From contig NZ_MJEH01000002.1 in NCBI RefSeq assembly GCF_001742425.1, forward strand, positions 59,793 through 83,792: 24,000 bases of DNA, written 5' to 3'. This document shows, piece by piece, positions 1,015 through 23,219 of this stretch; position 1 is the stretch's first letter, and the number at the start of each line of letters is the position of its first letter. The DNA comes from Bacillus solimangrovi (GTDB taxonomy: Bacteria > Bacillota > Bacilli > Bacillales > Bacillaceae_N). The notes below the pieces were generated by a model. That model ran no database searches and had not been told where the DNA came from. It saw only the letters and a list, made by a program, of their open reading frames with translations. The position numbers and the translations under genes are program-made.

Positions 1015-1950
1015 GTGAAATTTTCTTATCAGCAAGCTATAAGAGCAGTGATATTATTTGCATTTTCAGCAATGCTTTTTAAGCTACATTTTACAGGAGA
1101 CATAACCAAGTTTATCAACCCAAAATATGTCGGTTTAAGTCAGTCTGCTTCAGTCATCTTTTTATTTTTATTTTTTATCCAAATAACAAGAATTTGGAGT
1201 GTGAAAGAACATAACCACGAGCATTGCTCTCATGAAGCCGATAACTGTGGACATGACCATGGAAATTCAGCTTTTAATGTTAAGAAGTTAATATCCTATA
1301 TAATTATCATTATCCCTTTATTAACTGGGCTCTTTCTTCCTCCAAAGGTTCTCGATTCATCTATTGCAGCTAACAAAGGAGGTATGGCGGTTTTAACCAA
1401 ACAGACATCCTCCGAGAAAGAAACAAATAACCCTGCAACACTAGATACGAATGACGATGATACACAAAGTGAAGTAACATTTGAGCATAGTGCAGCGAAC
1501 CCTAGTATAACCGAAGCCCAAAAAGAAATTTCCAAGGAAGAATTTGATCAGCTTATACAAAAACTAGTGACGACTCCTGTTATTGAAATGAATGATTATG
1601 TTTTTAGCTCCTACTATCAGGAAATCAGTAAAGATATCAATAGATTCAAAGGAAGAAATATTGAATTAAAGGGTTTTGTATACAAAGAGGATGGATTTGA
1701 TGAAAATCAACTTGTACTTTCAAGATTTCTAATTACTCATTGTGTAGCAGATGCCAGCATCATCGGATTGCTTTCAGAATTCAAGGAAGCTTCTAGTATT
1801 GAACAGGACACATGGATTGAAGCCAAAGGAGTGTTGGATATTACGAACTATAATGGAATGGAACTTCCTTACATCAAAATTTCTGAATGGAAAAAAATAA
1901 AGACTCCTGAAGAACCTTATCTTTATCCTATCAGTGTAAGAATTTTATAA
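1015..1950 (+). CDS. TIGR03943/DUF1980 family membrane protein (YcgQ-like), partner subunit of the upstream permease
   Basis: GTG 1015 lies 7 nt after AGGAGG (1002-1007). The layout is N-terminal TM helices, a His/Cys-rich loop (EHNHEHCSHEADNCGHDHG), another TM, then a soluble C-terminal domain. Adjacency to a COG0701 permease is the typical arrangement for this family. Confidence 0.8.
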   Translation: MKFSYQQAIRAVILFAFSAMLFKLHFTGDITKFINPKYVGLSQSASVIFLFLFFIQITRIWSVKEHNHEHCSHEADNCGHDHGNSAFNVKKLISYIIIIIPLLTGLFLPPKVLDSSIAANKGGMAVLTKQTSSEKETNNPATLDTNDDDTQSEVTFEHSAANPSITEAQKEISKEEFDQLIQKLVTTPVIEMNDYVFSSYYQEISKDINRFKGRNIELKGFVYKEDGFDENQLVLSRFLITHCVADASIIGLLSEFKEASSIEQDTWIEAKGVLDITNYNGMELPYIKISEWKKIKTPEEPYLYPISVRIL

Positions 1951-2570: not shown

Positions 2571-2750
2571 TTTAACATCCTCCTATTTTTTATATCTATT
2601 AATTATTTTAATAACACACTTAATTAAGTTTGTTCATCAAAATGTTTTATGATACCTCATTTTAGAAATGTTATATTCAATTTCAAACATATACACACTA
2701 TATATGGTAAAATTATGTCAAATAAATCTATAGATTGTAAGGTGAAGAAT

Positions 2751-4526
2751 ATGCCAGATTGGTCCTATCATATTATATTTAAACCGATGTTAACGAAACT
2801 ATCCCCTTACACCTCTAGGGAGTTTATTCATCGTGGAATGAATGCAATCGCTTCTCTTCCAGTCGGTTCTCATATTATAAATTTCCTAGGTCGGGAAGAA
2901 TGTTCTCCTCTTCTTGAGAAACAACTTGATGGAGTGAAGTATAACAATCCTGTTGGACTTTCTGGGAAGATTGATCCTTTACTATCAGGTACAAAGGCAT
3001 TTTCACATTTAGGGTTTGGTTTCATTGAAATTGGGCCTATAACGATGAAACCAAGCTTGAATGCTCAACTTCCGATTATCAACAGAGAAGATAAACAAAT
3101 CCATTTCCCTTGCAAACATGAGTCTATTGGTTTAGAAACAACTATCGATAAACTAACAACAATCAAAAAGAAACAACCTTTATTCATGAGGATTTCAGGA
3201 AGTAAAGCAGAGATTTTCACAATGATTCAAGAATTAGATTCATATGCAGACGGCTATATTATTGAATCATATGATCCTAGTTATGTTACATTAACCTCTA
3301 AACCGATTTATGTCGTTGTTCCATCTAATGAAAAAACTGAAACTTTAGTAAACTTATTTCATACATTCTCTGGTGTAATAATTGACGGGGATTCATTTAT
3401 AGAAATATTAAATAGTGTACAACGTCTAAAAAAAATAGACTCCTCAAAAACTATTCTGACGTCTGGAGGAATTCATGAACCAGACCAAGCATTACAATTG
3501 CTAAATGCAGGTGCAGATTTAGTTATGTTAGTTGACGGTTATGTATTTTCTGGACCTGGTTTGACGAAAAGAATAAACGAAGCATTACTGAACAGAGTTG
3601 AGCAACCTTCTCTTCCGCAAAAAGGATGGAAGTCGTATTGGATATTCGGGCTACTTATTTTCCTTGGAGGATTACTTGCATTATTGTTTAGTTTAACTAC
3701 TATTATTCTCCCATATGATGAATTATTTTTAAATACAAAAAAAGAAAATTTATGGAATTTTAATGATAGAATTATGCTTTTTATGGCACATGATCGCATG
3801 ACATTAGCTGGCACGATGATTTCAGGTGGCATCGTGTATATGAATCTTGCTAAAAACGGTATTAGAAGAAAACTTAAGTGGTCAAAACAAGTTACAGATA
3901 TTGCTGCTATTATTGGCTTTTTAGGCATCTTTTTATTTATTGGTTACGGTTATTTTGATTGGTTGCATTTAGTGTTCTGGATCACCCTACTACCATTTTA
4001 TATATATGGTTTTTATCAAACTAGAAATGTACAAGGAACTCCTACTTCAACGAATCTAAAAAATCATAGAGCTTGGCAAATGTCTTTGTTGGGACAATTT
4101 TTGTTTGTATTATTAGGGTTTTCTTTTGTGTTTGGTGGAATCATTATTTCAATTTATGGGGTAACTTCAGTCTTTGTTCCAACTGACTTACTATATATTT
4201 GTATGAGTATTGACCAATTACAATCCTTTAATGAAAATTTATTATCATTAATTGCCCATGATCGTGCAGGATTTGGAAGTGCTTTATTAAGTGTCGGATT
4301 ACTCGTACTCATGATTGCTCTTTGGGGATACCAGCAAGGAAACAAGTGGGTTTGGTGGACTTTTTTTATTGGCGGCCTGCCAGCTTTTATTACTGCTATT
4401 TACGTTCATTTTGCAATTGGATATACAACCTTTATTCACTTATTACCTGCGTATTTTGCGTTTATCGTCTACATTTGTGGCTTGATCGTTAGTTATTCCT
4501 ATTTATCAAAGATTAATCCTGAGTGA
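2751..4526 (+). CDS. Dihydroorotate dehydrogenase (class 2)-like N-terminal domain fused to a C-terminal ~8-TM membrane domain
   Basis: ATG 2751 is preceded by AAGGTGA (2739-2745). The ORF-track start at 2649 has no RBS. NPVGLSGKIDPLLSGTKAFSHLGFGFIEIGPIT and TSGGIHEPDQALQLLNAGADLVMLVDGYVFSGPGL resemble the first and last conserved PyrD blocks. The C-terminal ~300 aa are hydrophobic and carry two AHDR-containing repeats. Confidence 0.75.
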   Translation: MPDWSYHIIFKPMLTKLSPYTSREFIHRGMNAIASLPVGSHIINFLGREECSPLLEKQLDGVKYNNPVGLSGKIDPLLSGTKAFSHLGFGFIEIGPITMKPSLNAQLPIINREDKQIHFPCKHESIGLETTIDKLTTIKKKQPLFMRISGSKAEIFTMIQELDSYADGYIIESYDPSYVTLTSKPIYVVVPSNEKTETLVNLFHTFSGVIIDGDSFIEILNSVQRLKKIDSSKTILTSGGIHEPDQALQLLNAGADLVMLVDGYVFSGPGLTKRINEALLNRVEQPSLPQKGWKSYWIFGLLIFLGGLLALLFSLTTIILPYDELFLNTKKENLWNFNDRIMLFMAHDRMTLAGTMISGGIVYMNLAKNGIRRKLKWSKQVTDIAAIIGFLGIFLFIGYGYFDWLHLVFWITLLPFYIYGFYQTRNVQGTPTSTNLKNHRAWQMSLLGQFLFVLLGFSFVFGGIIISIYGVTSVFVPTDLLYICMSIDQLQSFNENLLSLIAHDRAGFGSALLSVGLLVLMIALWGYQQGNKWVWWTFFIGGLPAFITAIYVHFAIGYTTFIHLLPAYFAFIVYICGLIVSYSYLSKINPE

Positions 4527-4641: not shown

Positions 4642-4908
4642 TTGGTGCAAATAGATAAAAAATACGTTATATATTTTTTAAGTTTCTTAGGTGCTGGCGT
4701 TGCAATGATTGCTTTAGCAGGTATAGGTATTGGGATTGGTACTGCTGGCGGAGCAGCCCTTGAAGGTATTGCAAGACAACCAGAAGTTACTAGTACAATT
4801 CAACAAACACTTCTGTTATTAGTTGTATTACCTGAATTATTCTTAGCATTCCTTGCTTTCGTTGTTGCGATAATTATTATTCAAACAATTAGAAATTGCA
4901 GATGTTAA
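4642..4908 (+). CDS. F-type ATPase c-subunit (proteolipid, AtpE)-like protein, solitary copy
   Basis: GGAG (4631-4634) lies 7 nt before TTG 4642; GTG 4645 is an alternative start. The protein is a two-helix hairpin with a Gly-rich helix 1 (GIGIGIGTAGGAALEGIARQPE). EGIARQPE is identical to the loop of Bacillus AtpE. A Glu in helix 2 (VVLPELF) sits at the same spacing from RQPE as the ion-binding Glu of AtpE. Confidence 0.7.
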   Translation: MVQIDKKYVIYFLSFLGAGVAMIALAGIGIGIGTAGGAALEGIARQPEVTSTIQQTLLLLVVLPELFLAFLAFVVAIIIIQTIRNCRC

Positions 4909-4917
4909 GAGAATTTT

Positions 4918-4947
4918 AACCGCTACTGATTAAAACTTGTAGCGGTT
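4918..4947 (+). terminator. Hairpin terminator after the c-subunit-like gene
   Basis: A perfect 9-bp stem aaccgctac (4918-4926) / gtagcggtt (4939-4947), 10 nt after the stop. The trailing T-tract is weak (aattatatt). Confidence 0.55.
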
Positions 4948-5090
4948 AATTATATTGCATTGATGGTTGAGGTTATTTTCAATTTATGTGCTTTATTACT
5001 TAAGTTTTTCTTGATGGAATCATTTAAATTCTCAAATAACTGACCACATCGAAATTTATTAAGTTTTACAAATAAAAGCACTTAAAAAAA

Positions 5091-5873
5091 TCAGTTACAA
5101 ATACTAGCGATGTTACTATTGTTGCACCTATTACCAATTAAATTGTTATCATCTTGATCTATAATATCAAGGTTCCCATTACCGAGCACATGATTAAAAA
5201 AAACATCATTTTCATTTGAATTTCCAGATAAACTTATTCCGTTTAGAACATTATCATTCACTACATTTCTCTTTATCAAGTTATCGTCTGAATCATCTTC
5301 TATAACAATCCCATTGTTATTACTTATGACATCATTTCCTTTAACTAAATTACTTTTTGCATTGTCCAATTCAATGCCTATAGAATTATTATTACAACTA
5401 TTCTTTTCAATCTTGTTCTGATTTGAATCGGCTAGAAATATCCCCTCAACACCACCATTACAACGATTGTTCATAATTTTATTTTCATTTGAACTAGATA
5501 ACACAATATTTAAACCGTATTGTTGTACAGTGAAATTTTGTACGATTACTCCTGAAGTTCCATTCAGTGTTAAACCATTACCTCCTATCATTGTTCCATC
5601 TAGTACAGGTTTCATTTTCCCTAACCCAATTAAATTTAAATTATCTTTATTTATGACAACATTTTGAACATATGGGCCTCCACTTGCTCGCACAAAAATA
5701 ATATCTCCTTCTTCTGCCTCATTAACTGCTTCTTGAATTGTAGGAAAATCATTTGGCACAACGATTGTTTTTTCGTTCAAAAAAAAGATTGCTAACCCAA
5801 TCACTGAACCTATAAAAATAAGACATACAAAACTACAAATTATTGAAATTATCAAATGTTGTGATGTTTTCAA
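5091..5873 (-). CDS. Membrane-anchored right-handed parallel beta-helix repeat protein (NosD/PbH1-like)
   Basis: TTG start at 5873 with GGTGGAAG upstream. There is an N-terminal TM anchor (LIISIICSFVCLIFIGSVIGLAIFF). Repeated Asn/Gly-rich ~22-aa turns follow (NKIEKNSCNNNSIGIEL, NLVKGNDVISNNNGIVI, NLIKRNVVNDNVLNGISL), as in beta-helix repeats. Confidence 0.75.
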   Translation of the reverse strand: MKTSQHLIISIICSFVCLIFIGSVIGLAIFFLNEKTIVVPNDFPTIQEAVNEAEEGDIIFVRASGGPYVQNVVINKDNLNLIGLGKMKPVLDGTMIGGNGLTLNGTSGVIVQNFTVQQYGLNIVLSSSNENKIMNNRCNGGVEGIFLADSNQNKIEKNSCNNNSIGIELDNAKSNLVKGNDVISNNNGIVIEDDSDDNLIKRNVVNDNVLNGISLSGNSNENDVFFNHVLGNGNLDIIDQDDNNLIGNRCNNSNIASICN

Positions 5874-6100
5874 ACTTCCACCATCCTATACACTTAGCTT
5901 GAACACCTTGCTTAGTCCTCAATCATTTACTATATAGATTGTTTATTTAGTGATTGATAGTCTTTTTAACCATATTGTATGCTTTAACTCATTATTTCGT
6001 TTAGACGATATTCTATAAAAATGGACTATAGTTGTTTCTGTACCTGTATTTTTATTGGATTTAAAGGATAAATCTTTATTGCACTTAGTCTTATTAGAAA

Positions 6101-6140
6101 CAAAAAAGACTTATCAAAAAATTGAAATTTGATAAGTCTT
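6101..6140 (-). terminator. Rho-independent terminator of the ABC/DUF4097 operon
   Basis: A perfect 13-bp stem aagacttatcaaa (6106-6118) / tttgataagtctt (6128-6140). It is followed by a T-run on the minus strand, 13 nt after the stop at 6153. Confidence 0.8.
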
Positions 6141-6152
6141 TCTTGATAATTA

Positions 6153-6944
6153 TTAATCTAAATTGATACTTCCTGATAACGTATGAATTGACAATTTTGG
6201 TCCGTTTGCTCCCAGTTCACTTTGTAACTTATTACCTGCCCCTTGAGAAATGATCTTCTCTGCTGCAAATAATGATGTTTTAATTTTACCTGATTCTGTT
6301 GCTGCATCTACGATTAAGCTATTAGGCTTCTGGTTAAAGTTAACTACAATTTTACCAGAAAGTGTATTAATATTACTATCACTACCTAACATTCCATTGT
6401 GTGAAAGTATTATATTCCCAGTTTGATTGGTAATTACAAAATCTCCATTAGCATTTTCCAATTCTACGTTTCCAGCCACATTTTCACTAAATAATTTATT
6501 ACTATCAATCCCATTTATCGATATATTGCCTGAGTCTGTTGTAAATACTAATTCCTCCGCTTTCAGACCCTCACCAGAAATATTACCTGATGTAGAGATT
6601 AAGCTGATTTTCTTATACATCGTATTTGGTACATCTAGGTATAGTGTTTTAGTTTTTAAATTTACGATGCCTGATGAATTTTCTAAATTTACTTTCAACA
6701 CATTGCCTTCAACTGTTGCAGGAATATCTTCAACATCTTCCATATTTACTTTCACTGTACTATCATTACTTGGACGAACTTCAATATTTTGACCATCCGC
6801 TTTCACATAAATTTCTTCAACGTTTCCTCCCTCGAACGATTTACTTTCAAAGTTTGATGCAGAATCTGAATTGCAAGCGCCCAGTAATAACACCATAAAT
6901 CCAATACTAAATAGTGTAATCATTCTATTGTTTAGCTTTCTCAT
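6153..6944 (-). CDS. Lipoprotein with DUF4097-like beta-strand repeats (putative adhesin fold)
   Basis: ATG 6944 lies after AGGAGG. The signal peptide has a lipobox (LLLGAC). Repeated SGNIS/SGKI/SGSI strand motifs run through the protein, which ends SGSINLD. The start overlaps the upstream permease stop by 20 nt. Confidence 0.8.
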   Translation of the reverse strand: MRKLNNRMITLFSIGFMVLLLGACNSDSASNFESKSFEGGNVEEIYVKADGQNIEVRPSNDSTVKVNMEDVEDIPATVEGNVLKVNLENSSGIVNLKTKTLYLDVPNTMYKKISLISTSGNISGEGLKAEELVFTTDSGNISINGIDSNKLFSENVAGNVELENANGDFVITNQTGNIILSHNGMLGSDSNINTLSGKIVVNFNQKPNSLIVDAATESGKIKTSLFAAEKIISQGAGNKLQSELGANGPKLSIHTLSGSINLD

Positions 6945-8565
6945 GATATCCTCCTTTAGAATAATCAGTTTTATTTATACCCTTTGTTCTTCCTAAGCTT
7001 AAACTACCAGTTTGTACCTGCTGAATCATGAGAGCAGTGATAAAGAACACGACTGTAAGAATTATATAAAGGTTGTTATGTGCAGTAGAAACACCTAAAA
7101 AGTCAAGATAAGGTAAGTCATTTACTGGGCCCATGTACCACCACAACATATAAATAACTTCAAATAGTTTTCTCGATCCACTCAATAATCCTAAAGCAAA
7201 GCTCAATGTAGGAATGAAAAATACACCTACTAACCATGAATAAAAATATGTCATTTGCCCTTGCATTAAGAATTGAACGAATATACCTGATGACATGAGT
7301 ACAGTAATAAAAATCCCAGAAATCCATACAGCAGCAAATTTATATATTGGTGGACAACTAGATAAGATTAACTCTCTAGTAAAGTATGTCTTTTCTCTCG
7401 TACCCATTTGAGACCAAATAACAATTGGCATAACCATTAGAAGAGGTAACCAACTTTGAATTTTGTCAAATGGAATTAAAATACTTCCAGTTATCATTCC
7501 TAAGACTAAAAGATACCACCAAATAGAATTACCTTTTAACATGATTCGTAACTCAGCTCGAATTAAGCGTGATAAATGAATACGTCTACTTTTTTCAACT
7601 GGTGATAACTTGAATCCCTTTTTCTCTGCACTTTCAACAATAAAGTTATTTTTACTCTTAAAGAGTGCAAGCTTTTTATTAAGCAGTTTTTTCTTTTCTT
7701 CCTTAAAGCGTGAAAATATCATAGATGAAAGTAATGTTAGAATCATCGCAATTAACACCCAAATCACGCGTTGTGTTAATAGATGTGAGTCCCACTCAAC
7801 ACCTTGCCAAATAAATGTTGCAATTTGCCCTTCTGTTGGATAATAACCGAAACTTCCCCCTTCTTGACTTTGAGCAATGAAAGGATATTGTATCGCTGCT
7901 TCACTTACCATGTCAGATCGAATCGCATCTAGTCCAAACAAATCCCAAAAACTACTAGGGCTTGCGATTGAAATTACACTAAAGAAAATCCAAAAACAGA
8001 AGAATACGATATTACCTATCACACCTTTTAAAACAGGTAAGACGTCAAATAAAACAGTTAAAGACGCTAATACTAATAGAGAAGGAATAGCGATAAATAG
8101 AAATGGTGCGAAGTAATCCCATAATTGTAGCTGATAACTTTCTCCACGTATTAATTGCATAATGATAAACGCAATCATCATAATACTTTCTATGACAACT
8201 AATACAAGAAAATTTGATATCGCTTTTCCTGAAATGTAACGGAAATTACTAATTGGTGTAGCTGCAATGATTTGTCCAACTTTCAACAATTGATCTTCTG
8301 TTATTTGACTTCTCAACATATAGAATCCAAATAACCATAGCAATAAGGTTGTAAGCATAGCTGCCATGCCGCCAAGCCATGCAGAATTATATACTCCACG
8401 TACTCCCCCAATATAAAATACTTCATAACCAGCTGTAGATGATGGTACACATGCATACCCAATAAAAATACTTAAACCAATAATAATGAGAAATGAATAG
8501 CTTCTCATTTGTTTAATGAGATTATTCTTCATTAAATAAACATACGATTCAAATGTATGGTTCAT
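6925..8565 (-). CDS. ABC transporter permease, fused double membrane domain (546 aa)
   Basis: Its ATG overlaps the stop of the upstream ATPase gene (ATGA at 8562-8565). Two blocks of about 6 TM helices are separated by a basic cytoplasmic linker (FKEEKKKLLNKKLALFKSK...). Confidence 0.8.
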   Translation of the reverse strand: MNHTFESYVYLMKNNLIKQMRSYSFLIIIGLSIFIGYACVPSSTAGYEVFYIGGVRGVYNSAWLGGMAAMLTTLLLWLFGFYMLRSQITEDQLLKVGQIIAATPISNFRYISGKAISNFLVLVVIESIMMIAFIIMQLIRGESYQLQLWDYFAPFLFIAIPSLLVLASLTVLFDVLPVLKGVIGNIVFFCFWIFFSVISIASPSSFWDLFGLDAIRSDMVSEAAIQYPFIAQSQEGGSFGYYPTEGQIATFIWQGVEWDSHLLTQRVIWVLIAMILTLLSSMIFSRFKEEKKKLLNKKLALFKSKNNFIVESAEKKGFKLSPVEKSRRIHLSRLIRAELRIMLKGNSIWWYLLVLGMITGSILIPFDKIQSWLPLLMVMPIVIWSQMGTREKTYFTRELILSSCPPIYKFAAVWISGIFITVLMSSGIFVQFLMQGQMTYFYSWLVGVFFIPTLSFALGLLSGSRKLFEVIYMLWWYMGPVNDLPYLDFLGVSTAHNNLYIILTVVFFITALMIQQVQTGSLSLGRTKGINKTDYSKGGYHEKAKQ

Positions 8566-9437
8566 TGTGTCACACCCAACGACGAAATATAGTAGAGGTA
8601 TGCATCTTCTAATGAAGAAGGCAATGAGGTAGCATTATAATTAGGGCGTTTTTCTGATATAATTCGTGCATGCACTCCGTCACTTCGATGAATAGCGCTA
8701 CTAATCGCATATTGCTCTTGCATGTTTTGAAGCTCTGATGTTGGGATAACACAATTCCAAACTTTATTATCAACACTTTTAATAAGGTATTCTGGCGTAG
8801 TGTGAGTAACTAGTCTGCCTTTTGATAGAACTGCAATGTTAGGTGCAATTGATTCAATGTCTGTTACGATATGAGTAGAAAGAATAACTATCCTATCTGA
8901 TGACAAGGTAGAAAGTAAGTTTCGGAACCTAATCCTTTCCTGTGGATCTAATCCAACAGTAGGTTCATCTACAATTAGTAGTGATGGATCATTTAATAAA
9001 GCTTGAGCAATACCAACTCGCTGTTTCATTCCTCCTGAAAATCCTCCTAATAACCTCTTTCGATCATTGGCTAAATTCAATGCTTCTAATAGTTCATTGA
9101 TTCTTTTCTTAGAAGATTTAATCGACAACCCTTTTATAGCTGCCATGTACTCAAGAAATTCTATTGGATTCATATTTGGGTAAACACCAAAATCTTGAGG
9201 TAAATACCCTAATTCTTTTCGTAAATAATTAGGGTTTTGTGCAATATCAACCCCATTCCATAATATTGTGCCACTTGATGGTTTTTCAATTGTTGAAAGC
9301 ATGCGCATCAAAGTCGACTTTCCTGCCCCATTAGGTCCCAACAAACCTAATACACCGGGTTTTAAATCTAATGTCACATTCTGAAGAGCCTGTTTTTGAC
9401 CATAATTTTTTGAGACTTGCTGTATAGTAAGCTCCAT
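8562..9437 (-). CDS. ABC transporter ATP-binding protein
   Basis: Walker A GPNGAGKST, signature FSGGMKQR and Walker B LLIVDEP are present. GGAGG lies 7 nt upstream of ATG 9437. Confidence 0.92.
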   Translation of the reverse strand: MELTIQQVSKNYGQKQALQNVTLDLKPGVLGLLGPNGAGKSTLMRMLSTIEKPSSGTILWNGVDIAQNPNYLRKELGYLPQDFGVYPNMNPIEFLEYMAAIKGLSIKSSKKRINELLEALNLANDRKRLLGGFSGGMKQRVGIAQALLNDPSLLIVDEPTVGLDPQERIRFRNLLSTLSSDRIVILSTHIVTDIESIAPNIAVLSKGRLVTHTTPEYLIKSVDNKVWNCVIPTSELQNMQEQYAISSAIHRSDGVHARIISEKRPNYNATSLPSSLEDAYLYYISSLGVTQ

Positions 9438-10027
9438 ATAAATACCTCCAATGTAAATCTTTATAATTTTCTATCTTCTTGATGTAACTTTCATTGTTTG
9501 CTTACTATTATCATAAACAGCTAAAGTAAAATTAAGGTAAAATAAAAGCAAAATCGAAGTAAGATTATAAGCTTTTAACTTAATGGTCCATTAATAATGT
9601 TTCTTCTATATCAAATGTAGATCTTATTATTAAAAACAGATCATCTCAGCTATTTTGTAAAAAACATCTCATTATAAAAATTTATTGTTCATTATGTTCA
9701 ATCATTAAAAAGGGATTATTTGTGAAGAGTGATCGCGAGAAATTGTTACAGATTGATTATTTTAAGATCAAAATTAAAGAAGAATTTGCGAAGAACGAAC
9801 AAGTAACTATTAAAGAAACTAAGCTTTGGTGGTTACTATAGAACTGTTAATTATTTCGAAAATAATTCGATTTCTTTTCAAACATAAAAGTAGCACTACA
9901 GAATTAATCTAATCAGTAGTGCTACTTCACATTAATACATTACGTTCAGAAAGACGAGATGTTATTGGGAGTACTAGCAAGGAAATAGAATCAAATGTCG
10001 CTAACACATTTAAGTATTTTAACTTGT

Positions 10028-10059
10028 AAGATAAAACAACCACCTACTAAAACAGGTGG
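10028..10059 (-). terminator. Possible terminator downstream of the 10172-11783 ABC pair
   Basis: A 6-bp GC-rich stem ccacct (10040-10045) / aggtgg (10054-10059). It is followed on the minus strand by ttgttttatctt. Confidence 0.4.
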
Positions 10060-10129
10060 ATTTAGAAATATATATCATCGACTATTGTCTTTTCCTTCAC
10101 TAAACTGATTAACTTTTTCTATTACTATA

Positions 10130-10171: not shown

Positions 10172-10867
10172 TTAGCTTACATCCTCAACCTCTACTTTAC
10201 GTATTGCTATGTATGCTATGAAAATACCTAAAACTGCAAGAAAAGTTGGTATTAGGATTATTGAACCAACAGAAAAACTATTAGTATTAAAACCTAAAAC
10301 CGTTACGATAAGGATGGAGGAAATTATAGTGACTGGCACAGACTTTTTTTTCATACCAAAATATAACGGGATTAAGCTTAATCCGGCAGTAGCAACAGAA
10401 TTAGTAAGGATTTTAAGCAACTGTTGAATTATAATTAATACGCTTAGTTGTTCTGGTACAAATTTAAAAAAGTTATCCATTACAATAAAAGAAGCAGATA
10501 TAAATATACTAGAAAGGATAATGGTTGTTAAACTCCAACAAACCACAATTATTAATTTTGCTCCCAATAATGCTTTTCTGTTTACAGGGTATGAAAACAA
10601 AACTAAGATGGTTTTATTTTTATATTCCTCAATAATTAACTTTGCAATAAGTACTGATGCAAAAATTGTAAAAGTTGCACCAACAAGTAAATTCAAAATG
10701 TTAAAAGCTTCTGAATATTGTCCGAAAGCAATCACACCATTATCTTTTCTCTCTGCGAAAGGAATAAGAAACATGAAAAATAGTAAGATTAAATTAGCAA
10801 GAACAATCCACTTATTATATACACTAAATTTGAATTTGTTTCTTTCTAGTTTGATTAGTCTTAACAT
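10172..10867 (-). CDS. ABC-2 type small permease (6 TM), antimicrobial-peptide/lantibiotic-immunity-like
   Basis: AAGGAGAG lies 9 nt upstream of ATG 10867. The N-terminus MLRLIKLERNKFKF followed by 6 hydrophobic helices is typical of small ABC-2 immunity-type permeases. It is coupled by overlap to the upstream ATPase gene. Confidence 0.8.
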   Translation of the reverse strand: MLRLIKLERNKFKFSVYNKWIVLANLILLFFMFLIPFAERKDNGVIAFGQYSEAFNILNLLVGATFTIFASVLIAKLIIEEYKNKTILVLFSYPVNRKALLGAKLIIVVCWSLTTIILSSIFISASFIVMDNFFKFVPEQLSVLIIIQQLLKILTNSVATAGLSLIPLYFGMKKKSVPVTIISSILIVTVLGFNTNSFSVGSIILIPTFLAVLGIFIAYIAIRKVEVEDVS

Positions 10868-11783
10868 CTGTGCTCTCTCCTTTTATAAGGTTTAAATAAT
10901 AATTTTCTAATGATTCAGTTTTTTTGTGAATAGACTCAATCTCTATATCACTAATTATTAGTCTCTTTGCAATTTCTTTTTGTGGAACATGAGAGTCATA
11001 GATGTGAATAACTGATTTACCTATAAGTTTAAAGTTTGTAATGTGCAATTCATTTTCTAAGATTTCAGTTGTGTATGTTGAATCCTTTGTAACTATTTCA
11101 ATATAATCAGGTTTTTTTTCGCGTATAGTATCCAATCCAATTTCCTCAATTAATTTACCATTATGAAGAACACCAATCGTATCAGCAAGATGTTCTATTT
11201 CTCCTAAAATATGACTAGAAATTAAAATAGTTGTTCCATACGCCTTGCTCATCATTTTTAATATATTTCTTATTTCTCTAATACCCGAAGGATCTAATCC
11301 GTTAATAGGTTCATCCAAAATGAGAAGTTTAGGATTAGTAATTATAGATCTTGCAATACCCAGTCGTTGTTTCATACCTAATGAAAAGTTTTTTACAGCT
11401 TTATTACCCGTATTTCTCAAGTTAACAAGTTCTAATGTGTCATCAATTGCATCCATATCGTTAAAATTCATATACTTACAATGAATTTCTAAATTTTCTT
11501 TTGCAGTAAGTTCGTCATACAAAATAGGAGTTTCTATGATATTACCTACTTTTTCTAAATATTCATAAGATGAACTTGAAATAATATCACCGAAAATCTC
11601 TATCTCTCCACTTGTTGGTTTAATTAAATTTACAAGCATTTTCATAACCGTCGTTTTTCCTGAGCCATTTGGACCTAGTATTCCGTAAATCTCTCCATTT
11701 TTTATATTCAAATTAACATCTGACACAACCTCTATCCCGTTAAATGATTTAGTCAAGTGACTTGTTCGTATAGTGTAGAACAT
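10824..11783 (-). CDS. ABC transporter ATP-binding protein
   Basis: Walker A GPNGSGKTT, signature FSLGMKQR and Walker B LLILDEP are present. AAGGAG lies 8 nt upstream of ATG 11783. The 3' end overlaps the permease start by 44 nt. Confidence 0.92.
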   Translation of the reverse strand: MFYTIRTSHLTKSFNGIEVVSDVNLNIKNGEIYGILGPNGSGKTTVMKMLVNLIKPTSGEIEIFGDIISSSSYEYLEKVGNIIETPILYDELTAKENLEIHCKYMNFNDMDAIDDTLELVNLRNTGNKAVKNFSLGMKQRLGIARSIITNPKLLILDEPINGLDPSGIREIRNILKMMSKAYGTTILISSHILGEIEHLADTIGVLHNGKLIEEIGLDTIREKKPDYIEIVTKDSTYTTEILENELHITNFKLIGKSVIHIYDSHVPQKEIAKRLIISDIEIESIHKKTESLENYYLNLIKGESTDVKTNQTRKKQIQI

Positions 11784-11845
11784 AAAAATATCTCCTTTTT
11801 TTTAAAATTTAGAGTCTACAACTTTACCTTCTTACTCTAACGTTT

Positions 11846-12580
11846 TTACTTTCGTCGAGATATTGTAAGGTAACTACATAAAAAACCTATAAAACACCAT
11901 ACCGTCAAAGCTATCCATGTTACACCTTTTATATCAAAGTTTTCAGGAGATAAAGCTCCTCTCACTGCGTTGGCCATATGCTCTATCGGTAGTAACGCAT
12001 GGATTATTTCTAACCACTCTGGAAGACGTTCGGCTGGAAAATTAATAGGTGAAAAAAGTAATACACCGATCATAAGTACTTGAGAAAGCAGTTGTGCTAT
12101 AGAAGGAGGTAACAAAACTGATATTGCGTAACCTACACAAATGGAAGTTAATCCTACAAAAAGTAGTATAGCTATTGCAAATGGATTGAAGGAAACTAAA
12201 ATATCAAAACGCACAGAAGCTATAATTAGTGCAAGTATAATACCAGGTATCGTTATAATAATCCATACGATTGCGTCTACTAACAGATATAAGAGACGAG
12301 GCAATGGCCATGTGAGCATATACTCAAAAGTTCCTTTCGTTTTTGACTCAGCAATCCCCTGAGGTAATATAACAAAACCAATAGCAAGTAGAATTACTGT
12401 TGGAGCCCCAGTTGTTAGGTAAATTGAACTCGTGTTATCTAACTCTGGTATTAAAAATGAAAAGCCAAAAACAATGCCCACAGACAACAATGTTTGAACT
12501 ATGATAAACAAAGGAAACATTACCCGCATGCTCAATAATTTCCAACGTAATAATAGAAAAAAACCACTGTTAAACAACAT
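11846..12580 (-). CDS. ABC-2 family transporter permease (DrrB-like)
   Basis: I place the start at ATG 12580 (AGGAGG 9 nt upstream) rather than the ORF-track start at 12640. The protein has 6 TM helices. The start overlaps the ATPase stop by 11 nt. Confidence 0.8.
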   Translation of the reverse strand: MLFNSGFFLLLRWKLLSMRVMFPLFIIVQTLLSVGIVFGFSFLIPELDNTSSIYLTTGAPTVILLAIGFVILPQGIAESKTKGTFEYMLTWPLPRLLYLLVDAIVWIIITIPGIILALIIASVRFDILVSFNPFAIAILLFVGLTSICVGYAISVLLPPSIAQLLSQVLMIGVLLFSPINFPAERLPEWLEIIHALLPIEHMANAVRGALSPENFDIKGVTWIALTVWCFIGFLCSYLTISRRK

Positions 12581-13520
12581 TATCTGTAACCTCCTGATTC
12601 TCCATTTTCTCTTGAGGTTTGATCCATTTAAAATATGCATCTTCTAATGTTATTGGACTTAAAGTATATTCTTCTATTTCGTTTGTTAAACGAAGATGTT
12701 CTACCCACTGTACAGCTTCAGAAACAAATGCTTGCGGAATTGACAAAAATACCCTTGCACCTGAATGCATAGTAATATTAGCAAAATCAGGTATTGGAGG
12801 GATAGAGTGTTCGGGTTGAATAACTAATTGTAATCGAAGGTTTCCTTCAAGATCTCTTTTTAATTGGGATGGAGTACCCGAAGCAAGTACTTCTCCTTCA
12901 CTAATAATAGCTAAACGATCTATAAATTGCTCAGATTCTATTACATTATGTGTAACTATAAGAACGGCAACCCCATTCTCAGCAAGTAAACGAATTTGAT
13001 TCCACAATAAACGTCTTCGGACTGGATCTATATCATTAGTAGGTTCGTCAAGTATGACGAGTTTTCCAGGAACTACTACCGTCATACAAAAAATAACTAA
13101 ACGTTTAATCCCCCCTGACAAATTTGTGGCCATTTTATTAGCCCATGGCTCTATATTTAGTTCCTTTAAAAGATAATCTGTGCGTTGAGCTACCTTATGT
13201 CGATCACCTTTGCGCATTCGTCCAGCTAATTCAATAGCTTGCTTAGGTGTTAATCCCTCTATTGATACTTGTGATTGCGGTTGCATAGTACATAGTTTAC
13301 GTGCTTGTTGAGGATTAGAAACAATATCTACTCCATCTATTGTAATCGTACCTGAACTAGGCTTCATTGAACCAATTATTTGCGAAACAAGTGTAGTTTT
13401 TCCTGCACCATTAGGTCCTAATAAACCAAATATTTCTCCAGGATTAACGGATAAAGAAATCTGATCATTCGCTTTGACACCCTTTGAGTACTCTTTTACA
13501 ACATTATTTACTAACAGCAA
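12570..13520 (-). CDS. ABC transporter ATP-binding protein (DrrA-like)
   Basis: TTG 13520 has AGGAGG upstream. Walker A GPNGAGKTT, signature LSGGIKRL and Walker B LVILDEP are present. Confidence 0.9.
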   Translation of the reverse strand: MLLVNNVVKEYSKGVKANDQISLSVNPGEIFGLLGPNGAGKTTLVSQIIGSMKPSSGTITIDGVDIVSNPQQARKLCTMQPQSQVSIEGLTPKQAIELAGRMRKGDRHKVAQRTDYLLKELNIEPWANKMATNLSGGIKRLVIFCMTVVVPGKLVILDEPTNDIDPVRRRLLWNQIRLLAENGVAVLIVTHNVIESEQFIDRLAIISEGEVLASGTPSQLKRDLEGNLRLQLVIQPEHSIPPIPDFANITMHSGARVFLSIPQAFVSEAVQWVEHLRLTNEIEEYTLSPITLEDAYFKWIKPQEKMENQEVTDNVV

Positions 13521-13593
13521 AAAACCATCCTCCTTTTATTTGTTTTAATGAATCCCATAGAAAAAAAGCGATTTAATTTGTAAACACATAACA

Positions 13594-13637
13594 ATTATAC
13601 TAAATAGAATTTAAATACTAAAAAGAATTTATATTCT
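13594..13637. promoter_or_regulatory. Divergent promoter/operator region between the TetR gene and the ABC operon
   Basis: A consensus TATAAT lies on the minus strand (complement of 13594-13599), with a weak -35 TTTAGT 17 nt upstream. An 18-bp tandem direct repeat (13596-13613 tatactaaatagaattta; 13614-13631 aatactaaaaagaattta; 16/18 identical) overlaps it. The short inverted repeat AGAAT-TTAT-ATTCT lies at 13624-13637. Confidence 0.45.
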
Positions 13638-13687
13638 ATACAGTATGTTAACTAGATATGTTATTATTGTCAAGAGGAGGAAGAAAA

Positions 13688-14326
13688 ATGAGTAGAAAAC
13701 GCTTAACCCAGGAAGAACGAAAACAAGAAACACGGAAAATGTTATTGGAATCAGCAGCTGAAACTTTTGCTAAGCTTGGTTTTCATGGAGCTTCTGTAGA
13801 TAAAATCGCAGAGTTTGCTGGATTCACTAAAGGAGCAATATACGCACATTTTAAATCTAAAGAAGAGTTATTCCTTGCCTTATTAGAACAACAAATGCAA
13901 TCACATGTTAATACCATTCATCAAATAATGGATGAAGAACATTCATTAGAACATTTCATTAAAAAAATGGGGCATTATTTTGACATGGATAGAGAGCAAA
14001 ATCAAGCCTGGAGTTCACTTAATATGGAATTTCTTTTATATGCTATGAGAGATGAATCAGTACGCCAAAAATGGACAGACATGATCTTGGAATCCGTAGA
14101 ACAACTTTCAGATGTAATAACAAAAATGAAGTCGGATGAAGAGGGAGAATCTAATTTGTCACCTGAAGAACTAGCCTGGACCATTCTATCAATAGAAAAT
14201 GGGATGGCTATTTTTAATATTATTGCAGGAAACAATACCCCATCAAATTTATACGGAAAAGCACTACAAAATATTCTCCAGCCTTCCTCGTGTAAAGACA
14301 TTGATTCAAGCTCCAAAATAAAATAG
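13688..14326 (+). CDS. TetR/AcrR family transcriptional regulator
   Basis: ATG 13688 lies 7 nt after GAGGAGG (13674-13680). The N-terminal HTH (FHGASVDKIAEFAGFTKGAIYAHFKSKEELF) is a typical TetR signature. The gene is divergent from the ABC operon. Confidence 0.9.
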   Translation: MSRKRLTQEERKQETRKMLLESAAETFAKLGFHGASVDKIAEFAGFTKGAIYAHFKSKEELFLALLEQQMQSHVNTIHQIMDEEHSLEHFIKKMGHYFDMDREQNQAWSSLNMEFLLYAMRDESVRQKWTDMILESVEQLSDVITKMKSDEEGESNLSPEELAWTILSIENGMAIFNIIAGNNTPSNLYGKALQNILQPSSCKDIDSSSKIK

Positions 14327-14364: not shown

Positions 14365-14392
14365 AGGCTGTCGTACTAATTTTCGACAGCCT
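14365..14392 (+). terminator. Hairpin downstream of the TetR gene (possible terminator)
   Basis: A perfect 9-bp stem aggctgtcg (14365-14373) / cgacagcct (14384-14392). No clear T-tract follows. Confidence 0.35.
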
Positions 14393-14494
14393 GAAACGTA
14401 TCCCAAAAGTTATTAATAGTATGAAAAAAACAACATGAAAGGCAAACATCGTTTAAATTTCAAGCTGATTAATGTTCTTCCAAACAGATTAATG

Positions 14495-17231: not shown

Positions 17232-17648
17232 ATGGAAACAAATGAAAAAGAAGAATTGATGCTCTTGAGTCGTGAAGCTGTGTTAAATGAAATAGGAATT
17301 AAGAGTGAGGTTGAACTTGCAGAAAACAGCAATTTCTTAAGATTCTTAGGTTTAACTAATAGACTTGATATAAGAGTTTTAGAGAAAATGCTCCCAGCAA
17401 TTCCGAATGTGACAAATCTACTTAAGCAAAATCAGGATTTTATACTAAATGGTATAAAGGAGCAAAAAGAGGTTTCTGTTAAGGCACTCGAAAGTTTTAA
17501 TAAAACAAAAGAAATCATTGCTGAAAAATTAAAAAAGGATAATCTCACTCCCGAACAATGGATAGAACTTATAAAATTGCTCGATAAAAGTAAACGCCAA
17601 GCAACCCCTGATTATACAACAGAAGTTGTTAATTTAGAGGTTGCTTGA
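17232..17648 (+). CDS. Hypothetical helical protein, 3' end replaced by IS66 sequence (disrupted gene)
   Basis: GGGAGGG lies 8 nt upstream of ATG 17232. From 17590 onward the reading frame runs inside the IS66 terminal repeat, so the last ~19 codons and the stop are IS-derived. Confidence 0.5.
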   Translation: METNEKEELMLLSREAVLNEIGIKSEVELAENSNFLRFLGLTNRLDIRVLEKMLPAIPNVTNLLKQNQDFILNGIKEQKEVSVKALESFNKTKEIIAEKLKKDNLTPEQWIELIKLLDKSKRQATPDYTTEVVNLEVA

Positions 17649-19251
17649 CGTGTGTATCACTTTTTATCGGTACCTTGCAAATAGCCGGTAGATCCGTTGA
17701 CCACGGCAAAACTTTATCGATTTCTTCTTTATTGGTTAAATCGATATTTGGTAGCACTTCAAACAAATATTGAAGATAATGAAAAGGACTTAAACCATTC
17801 TCTTTTGCGGTTTCAACCACACTATACATCACGGCACTCCCTCTAGCACCTCGCGGTGTATTCGAGAACATCCAATTTTTTCTCCCAATCACAAACGGTT
17901 TAATGGAACGTTCACTTCTGTTGTTATCGATTTCTAAATGACCATCTAATAAAAACGCTTCAAGTTGATTCCATTGATTCAAACAATAAGTAATCGCTTT
18001 GCCAAGGGCGCTTTTGGGTAAAACACGATCCTTTTGTTCATGAAGCCATGCTGAAAAAAGGTCCAAAATGGGCCTGCTTTTTTCAAGTCTCTGCTCATAT
18101 CGTTCTGTAGGGGTGACATGCTTGAGTTTTTTCTCGATAGAATAAAGTTGATTACAAAAGCGTAAACCTTCGCTCGCCTTCACCTTTTTCCTCTCTTGTA
18201 AGTCAGGTAAAGCCTTTAAAGCTTCATCAAACTTACGTCTCGCATGCGCCCAACATCCCACAAGGATAACATCCGGTACCTGATTATAACCACGATATCC
18301 ATCTACTTGTAAAAACCCTTGAAAACCCGTTAAAAAACTTTTCGGATGCTCGCCTGCTCTTGTTGGTTGATAATCATAGAGAACAATCGGGATATCTTCT
18401 TGTCCTGTACGATATAACCACAGATAAGATTTGGTTGTAGCTGATCGTCCAGGTTCACGTAAGACTTGGAAAGTCGTTTCATCCGCATGAAGGATGGTTC
18501 GATTAAGCAGATGTTCATGCATCCTTTCATATAAAACCACTAACCATTGATCAGCTCCATATAATAACCAATTTCCCATCGTTTGTCGTGATAAAAAAAT
18601 TCCCATTCGTTCAAAATGTTTTTCTTGACGATAAAGAGGTAAACCTTCTACATATTTTTGAGACATAATATACGCCATAATGGAGGGAGAAGCGATACTT
18701 TTAGGAAAGGCAGGTGCTGGCATATTCGCTGTTACAATCGGCGTAGCGATCTCATCTTGTTCACACTGACGACAAGCATAGACATATCGTTTATGTTCCG
18801 TCACCTTTACTTCCGCAGGAACAATTGTCAGTTCCTTTCGGACTTCTACACTCATCTCATGTAACGTACCACCACAGCATGAACAAACCTGTTCTTCATC
18901 AGCTAAACGATATTCAACCGTTTCGATAGGCAAGTTTTGGACAGACTCATCCCTATGACCACGTTTCTTTTTACGACGATAGGTGATCGTTTCAACAGCT
19001 GGTTCGGGTACTTCAGAATCACTTTCTTTCTCGGCCTCATTAAACAGTTCTAGAGCGAGTTGATTTTCCGGTGTTTTTTCGCTAGACGTACCAAACTGTT
19101 TTTGTTGGCTAAGACGAAATTGTTCTTCGTACCATCTCACTTTTTCCGTGAGTTCTTCTACTTGAGATTGAAGAGATTCAATTGTAGGTTGAGTGGAATG
19201 TATTGTTTTCATAGATAAAGGGATTCGACAAGAATATTCAAATTCCTTCAT
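17629..19251 (-). CDS. tnpC: IS66 family transposase TnpC
   Basis: 540 aa. An N-terminal leucine-zipper-like helix is followed by a Cys cluster (CSCCGGTLHEM...YACRQCEQ) and a DDE-type core (HADETTFQVL, VDGYRGY, GCWAHARRKF). This matches IS66 TnpC. Confidence 0.9.
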   Translation of the reverse strand: MKEFEYSCRIPLSMKTIHSTQPTIESLQSQVEELTEKVRWYEEQFRLSQQKQFGTSSEKTPENQLALELFNEAEKESDSEVPEPAVETITYRRKKKRGHRDESVQNLPIETVEYRLADEEQVCSCCGGTLHEMSVEVRKELTIVPAEVKVTEHKRYVYACRQCEQDEIATPIVTANMPAPAFPKSIASPSIMAYIMSQKYVEGLPLYRQEKHFERMGIFLSRQTMGNWLLYGADQWLVVLYERMHEHLLNRTILHADETTFQVLREPGRSATTKSYLWLYRTGQEDIPIVLYDYQPTRAGEHPKSFLTGFQGFLQVDGYRGYNQVPDVILVGCWAHARRKFDEALKALPDLQERKKVKASEGLRFCNQLYSIEKKLKHVTPTERYEQRLEKSRPILDLFSAWLHEQKDRVLPKSALGKAITYCLNQWNQLEAFLLDGHLEIDNNRSERSIKPFVIGRKNWMFSNTPRGARGSAVMYSVVETAKENGLSPFHYLQYLFEVLPNIDLTNKEEIDKVLPWSTDLPAICKVPIKSDTHVKQPLN

Positions 19252-19260
19252 CTGTAATTA

Positions 19261-19617
19261 TTATAGAATCGTTCTTGCATGTACGGCTTGATGTCCTTGT
19301 TTTTGATGAAAAGAAAATCCATCAAGAAGCCATCTAAACTGCCGTCTTGATATGGTAAGTGGTACATTAGGAGATTGAGTTGGCCATTCAAACGTTCCCT
19401 TTTCTAACCTGCGATAGTGCAACCAAAAACCATTATGTTCCCAAACAAGAATTTTTAGTTTATCGCGTGAGCGATTGCAAAAAACAAATAAACAAGAAGA
19501 AAAGGGATCTAACTCAAACTCTTCCTTTACAATGACTGCGAGTCCATCAATAGATTTACGTAAGTCAGTTGCCCCTTGTGCCAGGTATACCTTTTCAATC
19601 GCTTTTTCTGAAATCAT
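19261..19617 (-). CDS. tnpB: IS66 family accessory protein TnpB (Orf2)
   Basis: 118 aa. DLRKSIDGLAVIV...LFVFCNRSRDKLKILVWEHNGFWLHYRRLEKGTFEWP is the characteristic IS66 Orf2 sequence. It overlaps the tnpA stop by 4 nt. Confidence 0.9.
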   Translation of the reverse strand: MISEKAIEKVYLAQGATDLRKSIDGLAVIVKEEFELDPFSSCLFVFCNRSRDKLKILVWEHNGFWLHYRRLEKGTFEWPTQSPNVPLTISRRQFRWLLDGFSFHQKQGHQAVHARTIL

Positions 19618-19934
19618 AATTCTTTTACCGACTGCATGACTTGGAGAAGTACTTGTGAAGTAAAAGGTCCATCTAGTTCGATGGTTACTTCATTCATATG
19701 AATACGAATGGTAGTATTGATTTCTTCTTCTATAGTAGGAACACTCATTGGAATCCAATTTGCGGACTTATTCTTATTTGGTTCTTCCGTTTCAGGGGAT
19801 AATTTTTTCAGCCAGTAATAAAGCCGATGAACCGGAAGGTTCTGTTTTTGACACCAAGCAGCTTTTGATAGCCCACTTTCTTTAAAGTCAAGGATATAGG
19901 CTTCCCATTCTTTCTCTATTCGTTGTTTTTTCAT
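19614..19934 (-). CDS. tnpA: IS66 family accessory protein TnpA (Orf1, HTH)
   Basis: I place the start at ATG 19934, 7 nt after GGGAGG. The track's GTG at 19949 sits on top of that RBS. It is a small HTH-like protein (GLSKAAWCQKQNLPVHRLYYWLKK). Confidence 0.8.
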   Translation of the reverse strand: MKKQRIEKEWEAYILDFKESGLSKAAWCQKQNLPVHRLYYWLKKLSPETEEPNKNKSANWIPMSVPTIEEEINTTIRIHMNEVTIELDGPFTSQVLLQVMQSVKEL

Positions 19935-20047
19935 AGAAAAACCTCCCACATATATCAGTATGTAAGAGATTATCTCATGGATTATTTACAGATTGTACGT
20001 GGGCACTATTTGACGCTTACTTCCAAACAGATGACAAGTTATTGATT

Positions 20048-20878: not shown

Positions 20879-20941
20879 GTTAACTCTCCTTTAGTAAAAA
20901 ATCCAGTTTTTAAACCTCCTGTACCTTTATTCTATTCTTTA

Positions 20942-22843: not shown

Positions 22844-23044
22844 TCATATTCCCCCCCATAAAAAATTTATATTAGTAAGGCTTATATTCCATATACTAAC
22901 AGAAACCATTTACTAAACGAATCATTTTCATAAAATCAAAGCCTTGTAGTTCATAGGTTCTAAGACATAAAAAAAGGAGTAACTCCCCAAATGTCGAATG
23001 AGTATGCGACCAAACCAACTCTTTAGAAAAAAGGGGGAATCCTT

Positions 23045-23212
23045 ATGACTGCTATGCGACAAATATGTCTCTTTGAACTACAAGATTTATATGAATTAGA
23101 ACCTATCAAGCGATTTAAAGCAATTTTTTCAGAAATTGATATTGATCCTCTTATCTATGCTATATCTAAAAAATCAATTTACGGCTCATCTCTATTAATT
23201 GAAATAAGATGA
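23045..23212 (+). pseudogene. Truncated N-terminal fragment of an IS transposase (55 codons)
   Basis: AGGGGGAA lies upstream of ATG 23045. The product MTAMRQICLFELQDLYELEPIKRFKAIFSEIDIDPLIYAISKKSIYGSS resembles the conserved N-terminus of Bacillus IS4/IS5-superfamily transposases. It stops after 55 codons, next to the PPTase gene end. Confidence 0.45.
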
Positions 23213-23219
23213 AAAGTGT

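Follow-up and report, generated by a model that had tools for sequence, protein, structure and literature searches.

In a 24,000-nucleotide stretch of the Bacillus solimangrovi genome (contig NZ_MJEH01000002.1, positions 59,793 to 83,792; hereafter the window) the gene at 2751..4526 (+) encodes an inner-membrane protein of 591 amino acids with two modules, in which a catalytically dead barrel of the dihydroorotate dehydrogenase (DHODH) type is joined to a membrane domain of eight predicted helices. The protein is almost certainly not a dihydroorotate dehydrogenase, and the database name "dihydroorotate dehydrogenase" carried by its orthologues is a misannotation. Judged from its sequence, the N-terminal module is a pseudoenzyme that keeps the class-2 DHODH fold and has lost the catalytic serine and nearly all the contacts to flavin mononucleotide (FMN) and orotate. 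The core of the protein, ahead of the barrel, is very probably the membrane domain, which appears to be an undescribed family without Pfam, NCBIfam or PDB relative. The elements of the gene, all on the + strand, are the following.

2705..2713, +: putative sigma-A extended −10 promoter-like element, TGgTAAAAT, as read from the sequence
2739..2745, +: ribosome-binding site AAGGTGA, 5 nucleotides before the ATG, read from the sequence and favouring a start at 2751
2751..4526, +: coding sequence, 591 amino acids and stop, DHODH-like barrel plus 8-helix membrane domain; full-length orthologues at 50-68% identity, fusion in 80/80 Bacillales loci, purifying selection
2751..2900, +: N-terminal helical subdomain, residues 1-50 (MPDWSYH..SREFIH..FLGREE), from conservation, model and alignment to the E. 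coli PyrD N-terminus
2751..3605, +: dead class-2 DHODH-like TIM barrel, residues 1-285, eight strands kept, from profile matches, model, Foldseek and alignments
3627..4025, +: membrane repeat 1, residues 293-425, helices 1-4, with LPYDE at 3708-3722, HDR at 3789-3797 and DWLH at 3957-3968
4068..4508, +: membrane repeat 2, residues 440-586, helices 5-8, with VPTD at 4176-4187, HDR at 4257-4265, H553 at 4407-4409 and YTTFIH at 4422-4439

The likeness of the N-terminal part to class-2 PyrD, first noticed in a sequence-only reading of the window, is borne out by profile, PDB-block and Foldseek matches far above chance, though partial. Pfam PF01180 matches with E 8.8e-10 and 38.7 bits, against a gathering threshold of 27, and covers residues 55-155 and a C-terminal stretch, that is, part of the profile; a score above gathering with partial coverage indicates homology at the level of the fold family and not at that of enzyme function. 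The NCBIfam class-2 PyrD models (TIGR01036, NF00364x-NF00365x) reach E-values down to 1e-25 but with 54-91 bits against curated cut-offs of 200-619, and the equivalog cut-off is missed both by the best match (90.7 bits versus 267) and by TIGR01036 (63.1 versus 200). The class-2 DHODHs of the PDB align to two blocks only, residues 50-138 and 229-286. An AlphaFold model of the full 591 amino acids, built on an alignment of 23 orthologues, reached a predicted local distance difference test (pLDDT) of 84.7 and a predicted template modelling score (pTM) of 0.85, with the eight strands and three N-terminal helices all present. The top 50 Foldseek matches of the barrel in the PDB were all class-2 DHODHs (E 8e-11 to 1e-9, template modelling (TM) scores of 0.63-0.72 per target). 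The barrel also matches weakly the GGGP/PcrB prenyl-glycerol-phosphate synthases (E 0.0037-0.07), at generic phosphate-binding strands only. The first 50 residues, modelled as helices at residues 3-14, 19-35 and 39-47, are the best-conserved part of the barrel half, with 24 residues invariant among the 23 orthologues, and correspond to the quinone-funnel and membrane-association helices of class-2 DHODH.

The genuine E. coli PyrD sequence was aligned with 112 full-length Bacillaceae orthologues, and 87 distant relatives with N-domains of 300-400 amino acids were checked separately. The FMN-contact positions of the UniProt/HAMAP annotation, E. coli K66, T86, N139, N172, K217, T245, the G268 loop, G297 and Y318/S319, had their residue numbers verified on the E. 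coli sequence. The absence of the central motifs, suspected by eye from the window alone, holds against E. coli PyrD, where INRMGFNN aligns with IHFPCKHES and AINISSPN with YIIESYD, and the loss is family-wide. The fate of the single positions in the orthologues is as follows.

K66 (FMN/substrate): Pro in 112/112
T86 (FMN): Pro in 112/112
N111 (substrate): Phe in 109/112
N139 (FMN): Arg in 100/112
N172 (FMN/substrate): Glu, Asp or Ser; Asn retained in 1/112
S175 (catalytic base): variable; Ser retained in 7/112, Asp in the window protein
N177 (substrate): deleted (77 of 112) or replaced; the P-N after the Ser175 position deleted in 77
K217 (FMN): Ser or Ala
T245 and N246 (FMN/substrate): acidic, T245 to Glu or Asp, N246 to Glu in 75/112
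GGLSG loop (FMN): deleted

The only survivors are the GG of β7 (residues 239-240; E. coli G296/G297) and the G..GPGL of β8 (residues 263-271; G320). Among the distant relatives, every one of the 87 keeps at most 1 of 9 core residues, and the same exchanges recur (T86 to Pro in 73/87, N139 to Arg in 71/87), with a Ser at the catalytic position in 11/87, without the motif. In the 112 orthologues and the 87 distant relatives alike, the catalytic serine and the FMN and orotate residues are replaced or deleted. The module had been described beforehand as repurposed or degenerate. The median of the non-synonymous substitution rate divided by the synonymous one (dN/dS) over 40 orthologue pairs is 0.21 in the barrel and 0.10 in the membrane half; the barrel is under purifying selection and hence repurposed, whereas the notion of a decaying domain does not stand.

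The second half of the protein is the more constrained one by that measure. The fusion to a membrane part of about 300 amino acids, proposed from the sequence, is upheld by eight predicted helices in residues 293-586, modelled at pLDDT 92.4 and pTM 0.92, and the pTM of the complete model suggests that the two modules are docked. Repeats 1 and 2 are homologous (hhalign probability 99.8%, E 1e-28) and form an internal duplication of 2 × 4 helices. An alignment of 369 homologues shows 17 positions with at least 99% conservation (D323, F344, H347, D348, R349, W377, H406, G463, D479, H503, D504, R505, G509, H553, Y558, H563 and P566); 13 of these never vary, and for all 17 a place on the outer face is predicted. 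The nearly invariant cluster, with two HDR motifs in it, consists of five His, four Asp, two Arg and one Tyr, and the five conserved His sit at the outer ends of helices 2, 4, 6, 7 and 8. In the same 369 sequences the Lys plus Arg content per residue is 0.17-0.21 in loops 2, 4 and 6 and 0.01-0.08 in the motif-bearing loops 1, 3, 5 and 7. By the positive-inside rule, this distribution of charge would leave the barrel and both termini in the cytoplasm with the His/Asp/Arg cluster facing outward, so that the cluster is predicted to lie at the outer membrane-water interface.

Profile searches set this domain apart. No Pfam family was matched at E<=10 by any of 33 members, NCBIfam gave no match for the domain, and the PADLOC anti-phage profiles gave none for the window protein or for its stand-alone, actinobacterial and desaturase-fused relatives. 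The sole sequence match in the PDB, to the β subunit of RNA polymerase (IPFLEHDDANRA, E 0.013), involves a short motif and was judged spurious.

The distribution of the membrane domain also speaks for it as the core. Among 1.84 billion representatives its profile matches 1320 clusters at E<=1e-3, a number that drops to 477 at E<=1e-30, and a genome scan found it in at least 560 species. The best 80 of the at least 560 genome matches all belong to Bacillales, and a survey of the fusion in these 80 found the full architecture of about 600 amino acids in 80/80; the closest relatives of the window protein are from Bacillaceae. Searched with residues 291-591 alone, the databases yielded stand-alone proteins of about 305-340 amino acids (in metagenomes and in a metagenome-assembled genome of Planctomycetaceae), Paenibacillus forms, and actinobacterial forms of about 500 amino acids from Mycobacterium/Mycolicibacterium, Nocardia, Streptomyces and Williamsia, which begin with MPDWTY and have no Pfam match. 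The actinobacterial N-domain is homologous to the Bacillaceae barrel (hhalign probability 78%, E 1.7e-5) but has shrunk to about 190 amino acids. Furthermore, the 8-helix module is joined to domains of the FA_desaturase family (PF00487) in both orders, N-terminally in 18 and C-terminally in 3 clusters at 90% identity. All three His boxes of these desaturase-type domains are intact (HDLVH, HL[HND]HH and HLEHH), and their nearest curated model is the CrtR-type β-carotene hydroxylase, far under its cut-off. Independent fusions in both orders argue for functional coupling. The carriers, judged by organism names, are aerobic soil and marine lineages. Hence, of the earlier picture of a flavoenzyme domain tethered to a membrane module, the two-module fusion is retained and the emphasis is reversed, as the membrane module is the conserved autonomous core, found alone and with other partners.

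Two further architectures were encountered among the relatives. In protein P0300 (487 amino acids, from a metagenome) the membrane domain is followed by a chorismate mutase domain of type II (PF01817, E 1.8e-12), a single case that may be a gene-calling fusion; chorismate feeds menaquinone synthesis. P0371, in which a BNR-like C-terminal region follows the membrane domain, was discarded as a real fusion, since an internal lipoprotein-like signal sequence indicates that two genes were probably merged by the gene caller.

Counted from its first ATG, a single long open reading frame (ORF) spans 2649-4526 (+). Taking into account that: (i) MPDW[ST]Y is the N-terminus of every homologue, and distant relatives share MPDW[STF]Y; (ii) AAGGTGA lies 5 nucleotides upstream, and (iii) the −10-like element falls inside the longer ORF, the ATG at 2751 (MPDWSY...) is supported as the true start, rather than the one at 2649. 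The element at 2705-2713 was passed over by a generic consensus promoter scan because it has no −35 hexamer, and the consensus promoter and terminator scan of the window did no better than chance. Many of 84 loci have an element resembling TGnTAnAAT 40-70 nucleotides upstream of the orthologue, and the frequency of such sigma-A-type extended −10 elements suggests monocistronic, constitutive expression.

For the function we propose, with about an even chance of being right, that the membrane domain is an outward-facing module that binds a cofactor or metal. Candidates for the site are heme, held by the His pairs of helices 2/4 and 6/8, a metal centre of His and Asp, and a site of quinone type built from His, Asp, Arg and Tyr. 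The substrate may be a lipophilic membrane molecule, such as menaquinone, another isoprenoid or an acyl lipid. The dead barrel would act as a rigid cytoplasmic cap or as a regulatory domain, presenting the former quinone-funnel helices to the membrane domain. Class-2 DHODH passes electrons to membrane quinone, and the link to membrane redox or lipid chemistry is drawn from the fusion partners, one a barrel derived from a quinone enzyme and the other the intact di-iron desaturase/hydroxylase-like domains. A redox or lipid-processing role of the protein is on these grounds conceivable, somewhat short of an even bet. More tentative still is the wider reading, which may well not hold, that the family would be a class of cofactor-binding membrane module not recognised before, whose site for heme, metal or quinone would face outward and couple cytoplasmic lipid or quinone enzymes to chemistry at the outer face, with a class-2 DHODH turned into its non-catalytic subunit in Bacillaceae and actinobacteria.

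Several observations weigh against the cofactor-module reading. The conserved cluster and the two kinds of partner domain lie on opposite sides of the membrane, a distance too large for electrons to pass directly to a di-iron or flavin site in the cytoplasm, and this geometry makes a cytochrome-b5-like donor role unlikely unless further cofactors take part. The motif is kept in both repeats and would also fit a symmetric pore or binding site. Neither the inner face nor the membrane core showed a conserved polar residue among the 369 homologues. No solved cytochrome, quinone enzyme or transporter resembled the membrane domain among the Foldseek matches listed (best E 0.17), and the predicted models carry no ligands; the cofactor or metal site is a candidate. 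The genes around it give no operon partner that is conserved, any neighbour family being present in at most 13 of 80 loci after all-against-all ORF clustering; Rfam found no riboswitch or PyrR attenuator near the gene in the window and 7 loci, and no known regulator emerged, as detailed below.

The most recurrent neighbours (an SDR protein, a two-component pair, an ABC ATPase and an NCS2-type permease) are none of them consistent. No pyr gene is present in the window, and in 84 loci the family gene has no pyr context. In Mycolicibacterium peregrinum (6373-10123 of the locus) the homologue of about 500 amino acids lies 12 nucleotides downstream of a gene of the phosphoglucomutase/phosphomannomutase family and converges on upp, coding for uracil phosphoribosyltransferase, the sole pyrimidine-related neighbour seen. 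Regulation by zinc or other metals was considered and rejected, with no Zur box near the window gene and no enrichment of Zur, Fur or PerR boxes upstream in 84 loci. The Gracilibacillus caseinilyticus locus contains two near-perfect Zur boxes at 5425-5505, AAATCGTAATTATTACGAAT and TAGTAATGATTACGATTT; they serve a divergent operon (an rpsN paralogue, rpsN2, followed by cobW, Pyr_redox_2, FeoB-like and cobW genes) and lie more than 500 nucleotides from the start of the orthologue. A c-di-GMP-I riboswitch (67 bits) at 14368-14454 (−) of the Rossellomorea vietnamensis locus, about 5.5 kb downstream of the orthologue, is unrelated. A DusB gene two genes upstream of a stand-alone homologue was set aside as a functional link, since it encodes a genuine DusB above its cut-off and is a coincidence. 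Genomic context is uninformative for this family, and the domain partnership is the informative signal.

The same cluster and duplication have been weighed under other functions. The protein might be a transporter or channel, in which the parallel 2 × 4 repeat would form a pore or an alternating-access path that lets an ion or metal through, entry or selectivity would be served by the outer His/Asp/Arg ring, and the barrel would be a regulatory ligand sensor like CBS or TrkA domains. Symmetric duplication with the same polar motif in each half, glycine-rich helices and His/Asp clusters typical of metal sites are what such a protein would have, and metal-related genes are scattered around the family (a ZIP transporter at one locus, the Zur-boxed rpsN2-cobW operon of Gracilibacillus caseinilyticus, and the ArsP_1/TIGR03943 pair in the window). 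However, these neighbours do not recur (neighbour families reach at most 13/80 loci), Zur, Fur and PerR boxes are missing upstream in the 84 loci, and the membrane core and inner face lack conserved charged or polar residues. A fold of the MFS or CLC transporters was rejected, the Foldseek matches (TM 0.1-0.25, root-mean-square deviation about 20 Å, E>0.1) being noise. Since it also leaves the desaturase fusions in both orders unexplained, we consider a transporter unlikely.

Of the same low probability is an enzyme acting at the outer leaflet, whose cluster would be a hydrolase, phosphatase or transferase active site, possibly metal-dependent, working on a lipid head group or polyprenyl-phosphate, with the partner domains binding the same class of lipid at the inner leaflet. 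The invariant His, Asp, Arg and Tyr, placed by prediction at the membrane-water interface of the outer face, would suit such chemistry; residues of these types recall those of intramembrane Zn hydrolases and of PAP2 phosphatases. Each of the partner domains descends from enzymes of lipophilic substrates, and the barrel retains phosphate-binding glycine loops in addition to its weak GGGP/PcrB matches (E 0.0037-0.07). These matches are nevertheless limited to generic phosphate-binding strands, no PAP2, BacA or hydrolase family was matched in Pfam at E<=10, nor any PDB fold or sequence, and cell-envelope genes are not among the neighbours.

Far less probable is that the barrel still works as an electron-transfer flavodomain, with FMN bound in a remodelled pocket, F119 stacking on the flavin where the substrate would be and R147 standing in for the lost lysines, and with electrons exchanged with the membrane module without oxidation of dihydroorotate. 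The GG of β7 and the G of β8 are retained, the domain is under purifying selection, and the replacements are themselves conserved (F119 in 109/112, R147 in 100/112 and 71/87, and P96), which suggests a defined pocket. Nonetheless, the FMN-holding elements have disappeared (two lysines, four asparagines, the threonine and the GGLSG loop), positions 172, 212 and 213 are now acidic, and the domain is reduced to about 190 amino acids in actinobacteria and wholly missing in other members. A divergent but housekeeping quinone-dependent DHODH, favoured by the PF01180 score above gathering and by the public name of the orthologues, is effectively excluded by the loss of catalytic and binding residues in 199/199 relatives, by scores far under the curated PyrD cut-offs and by the class-1B PyrD/PyrK of the pyr operon through which Bacillaceae make uridine monophosphate, and so is a decaying pseudogene or an assembly fusion, because the architecture is whole in 80/80 loci with dN/dS of 0.1-0.2.

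The cofactor-module reading, if true in its coupling form, would mean that the label "PyrD" now conceals a new membrane enzyme or redox family that counts more than 1300 sequence clusters. The orthologues are already in the databases, yet misnamed and unstudied, and metabolic reconstructions trusting the name would include a class-2 DHODH unable to work. The family also offers a case of pseudoenzyme evolution, in which a flavoenzyme fold is selected after the loss of its cofactor and substrate contacts, in a series from full barrel to shrunken barrel to no barrel. The His/Asp/Arg cluster and the two-way desaturase fusion are testable leads to a new activity at the membrane of aerobic bacteria from soil and sea, mycobacteria and Nocardia among them.

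Other features of the window, whose G+C content is about 0.29-0.35 except at an insertion sequence, lie on either side of the gene. Downstream, at 4642-4908 (+), an orphan ORF of 88 amino acids resembles the c subunit of ATP synthase F0, with a GIARQPE loop and an acidic residue in helix 2. It matches Pfam ATP-synt_C with E 6e-11 but falls under all NCBIfam c-subunit cut-offs (35.5 versus 43.95 for TIGR01260). A ribosome-binding site of its own, AAAGGAG, precedes it, the DHODH-like gene ends 115 nucleotides before it, without a clear terminator in the gap, and a hairpin follows at about 4917-4950. The window contains no other atp gene, and the ORF was not found in 92 related loci. Upstream, a permease pair at 64-1002 and 1015-1950 (+) is composed of an ArsP_1 protein, weakly like the Cu/Zn efflux proteins SO_0444/SaoE, and a TIGR03943/DUF1980 subunit with a His/Cys-rich loop (HNHEHCSHEADNCGHDHG). 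The pair is probably a metal transporter and is not a conserved neighbour of the DHODH-like family.

The rest of the window is occupied by genes of other kinds. At 5091-9437 (−) are encoded a NosD-like β-helix protein, a DUF4097 "toastrack" lipoprotein and a polytopic protein of 546 amino acids without Pfam match, whose gene overlaps at its start with the stop of an ABC ATPase gene. A further two ABC ATPase genes, one ABC-2 permease gene and a TetR regulator are found at 10824-14326. The insertion sequence, an IS66-family element at 17629-19949 (−) with a transposase of 540 amino acids, a TnpB-like protein of 118 and an ORF of 111, has a G+C content of 0.37-0.41 against about 0.31 around it. 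A thioesterase, a beta-lactamase-family protein of 633 amino acids and a 4′-phosphopantetheinyl transferase stand in a row at 20120-23903 (−) and have the appearance of accessory genes in a cluster for a nonribosomal peptide or polyketide that extends past the window.

In our literature searches a DHODH-like membrane fusion was not found described; the comparison with known systems is made by parts. With class-2 PyrD (PF01180, TIGR01036; E. coli 1F76, human DHODH 1D3G) the protein shares the eight-stranded TIM barrel and the N-terminal quinone-funnel subdomain, as well as the blocks NPVGLSG at β1, GFGFIEIGP at β2, GGI at β7 and GY.F.GPGL..RI at β8 and the C-terminus. It differs in a barrel about 50 amino acids shorter, in scores that are about a third or less of the family cut-offs, and in its 8-helix membrane domain, which canonical PyrD lacks.

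For the membrane domain, the only meaningful per-target TM score among the Foldseek matches listed is that of the DoxX-like NACHO/TMEM35A (PDB 9H9E chain B), to which one four-helix half is superimposed at TM 0.55 over 157 columns; the probability is 0.41, E is 3.3, the identity is 16% and Pfam DoxX gives no match, so that the likeness is unproven. Heme A synthase, CtaA/Cox15, is a pseudo-symmetric protein of 2 × 4 helices, in which conserved His stand close to the outer face on helices 2, 4, 6 and 8. The two have in common a length of about 300 amino acids, the duplication of a four-helix bundle, extended outer loops 1 and 3 and, on each of helices 2/4/6/8, one invariant His at the outer end, whereas the HDR motifs and H553/Y558 of the window protein have no known counterpart in CtaA. 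Homology was rejected, with no match to PF02628 at E<=10 in the 33 members and no CtaA/Cox15 among the 50 Foldseek matches listed (best E 0.17).

Another parallel in architecture is offered by the fusion partners of membrane di-iron enzymes. Those described to date are electron-transfer proteins, namely cytochrome b5, attached at one end or the other, rubredoxin, and ferredoxin together with its reductase (PMC8918992), and the known fusions comprise cytochrome b5-desaturase, AlkB-rubredoxin and AlkB-ferredoxin-reductase (PMC8918992, PMC10113152). The 8-helix module likewise stands at either end of a desaturase-type domain, as cytochrome b5 does. Unlike these donors, however, it is an integral membrane domain and not a small soluble heme or iron-sulfur domain, and its conserved residues are predicted to face outward, away from the di-iron site; the relation of the module to the di-iron donor fusions is one of analogy, not of membership.

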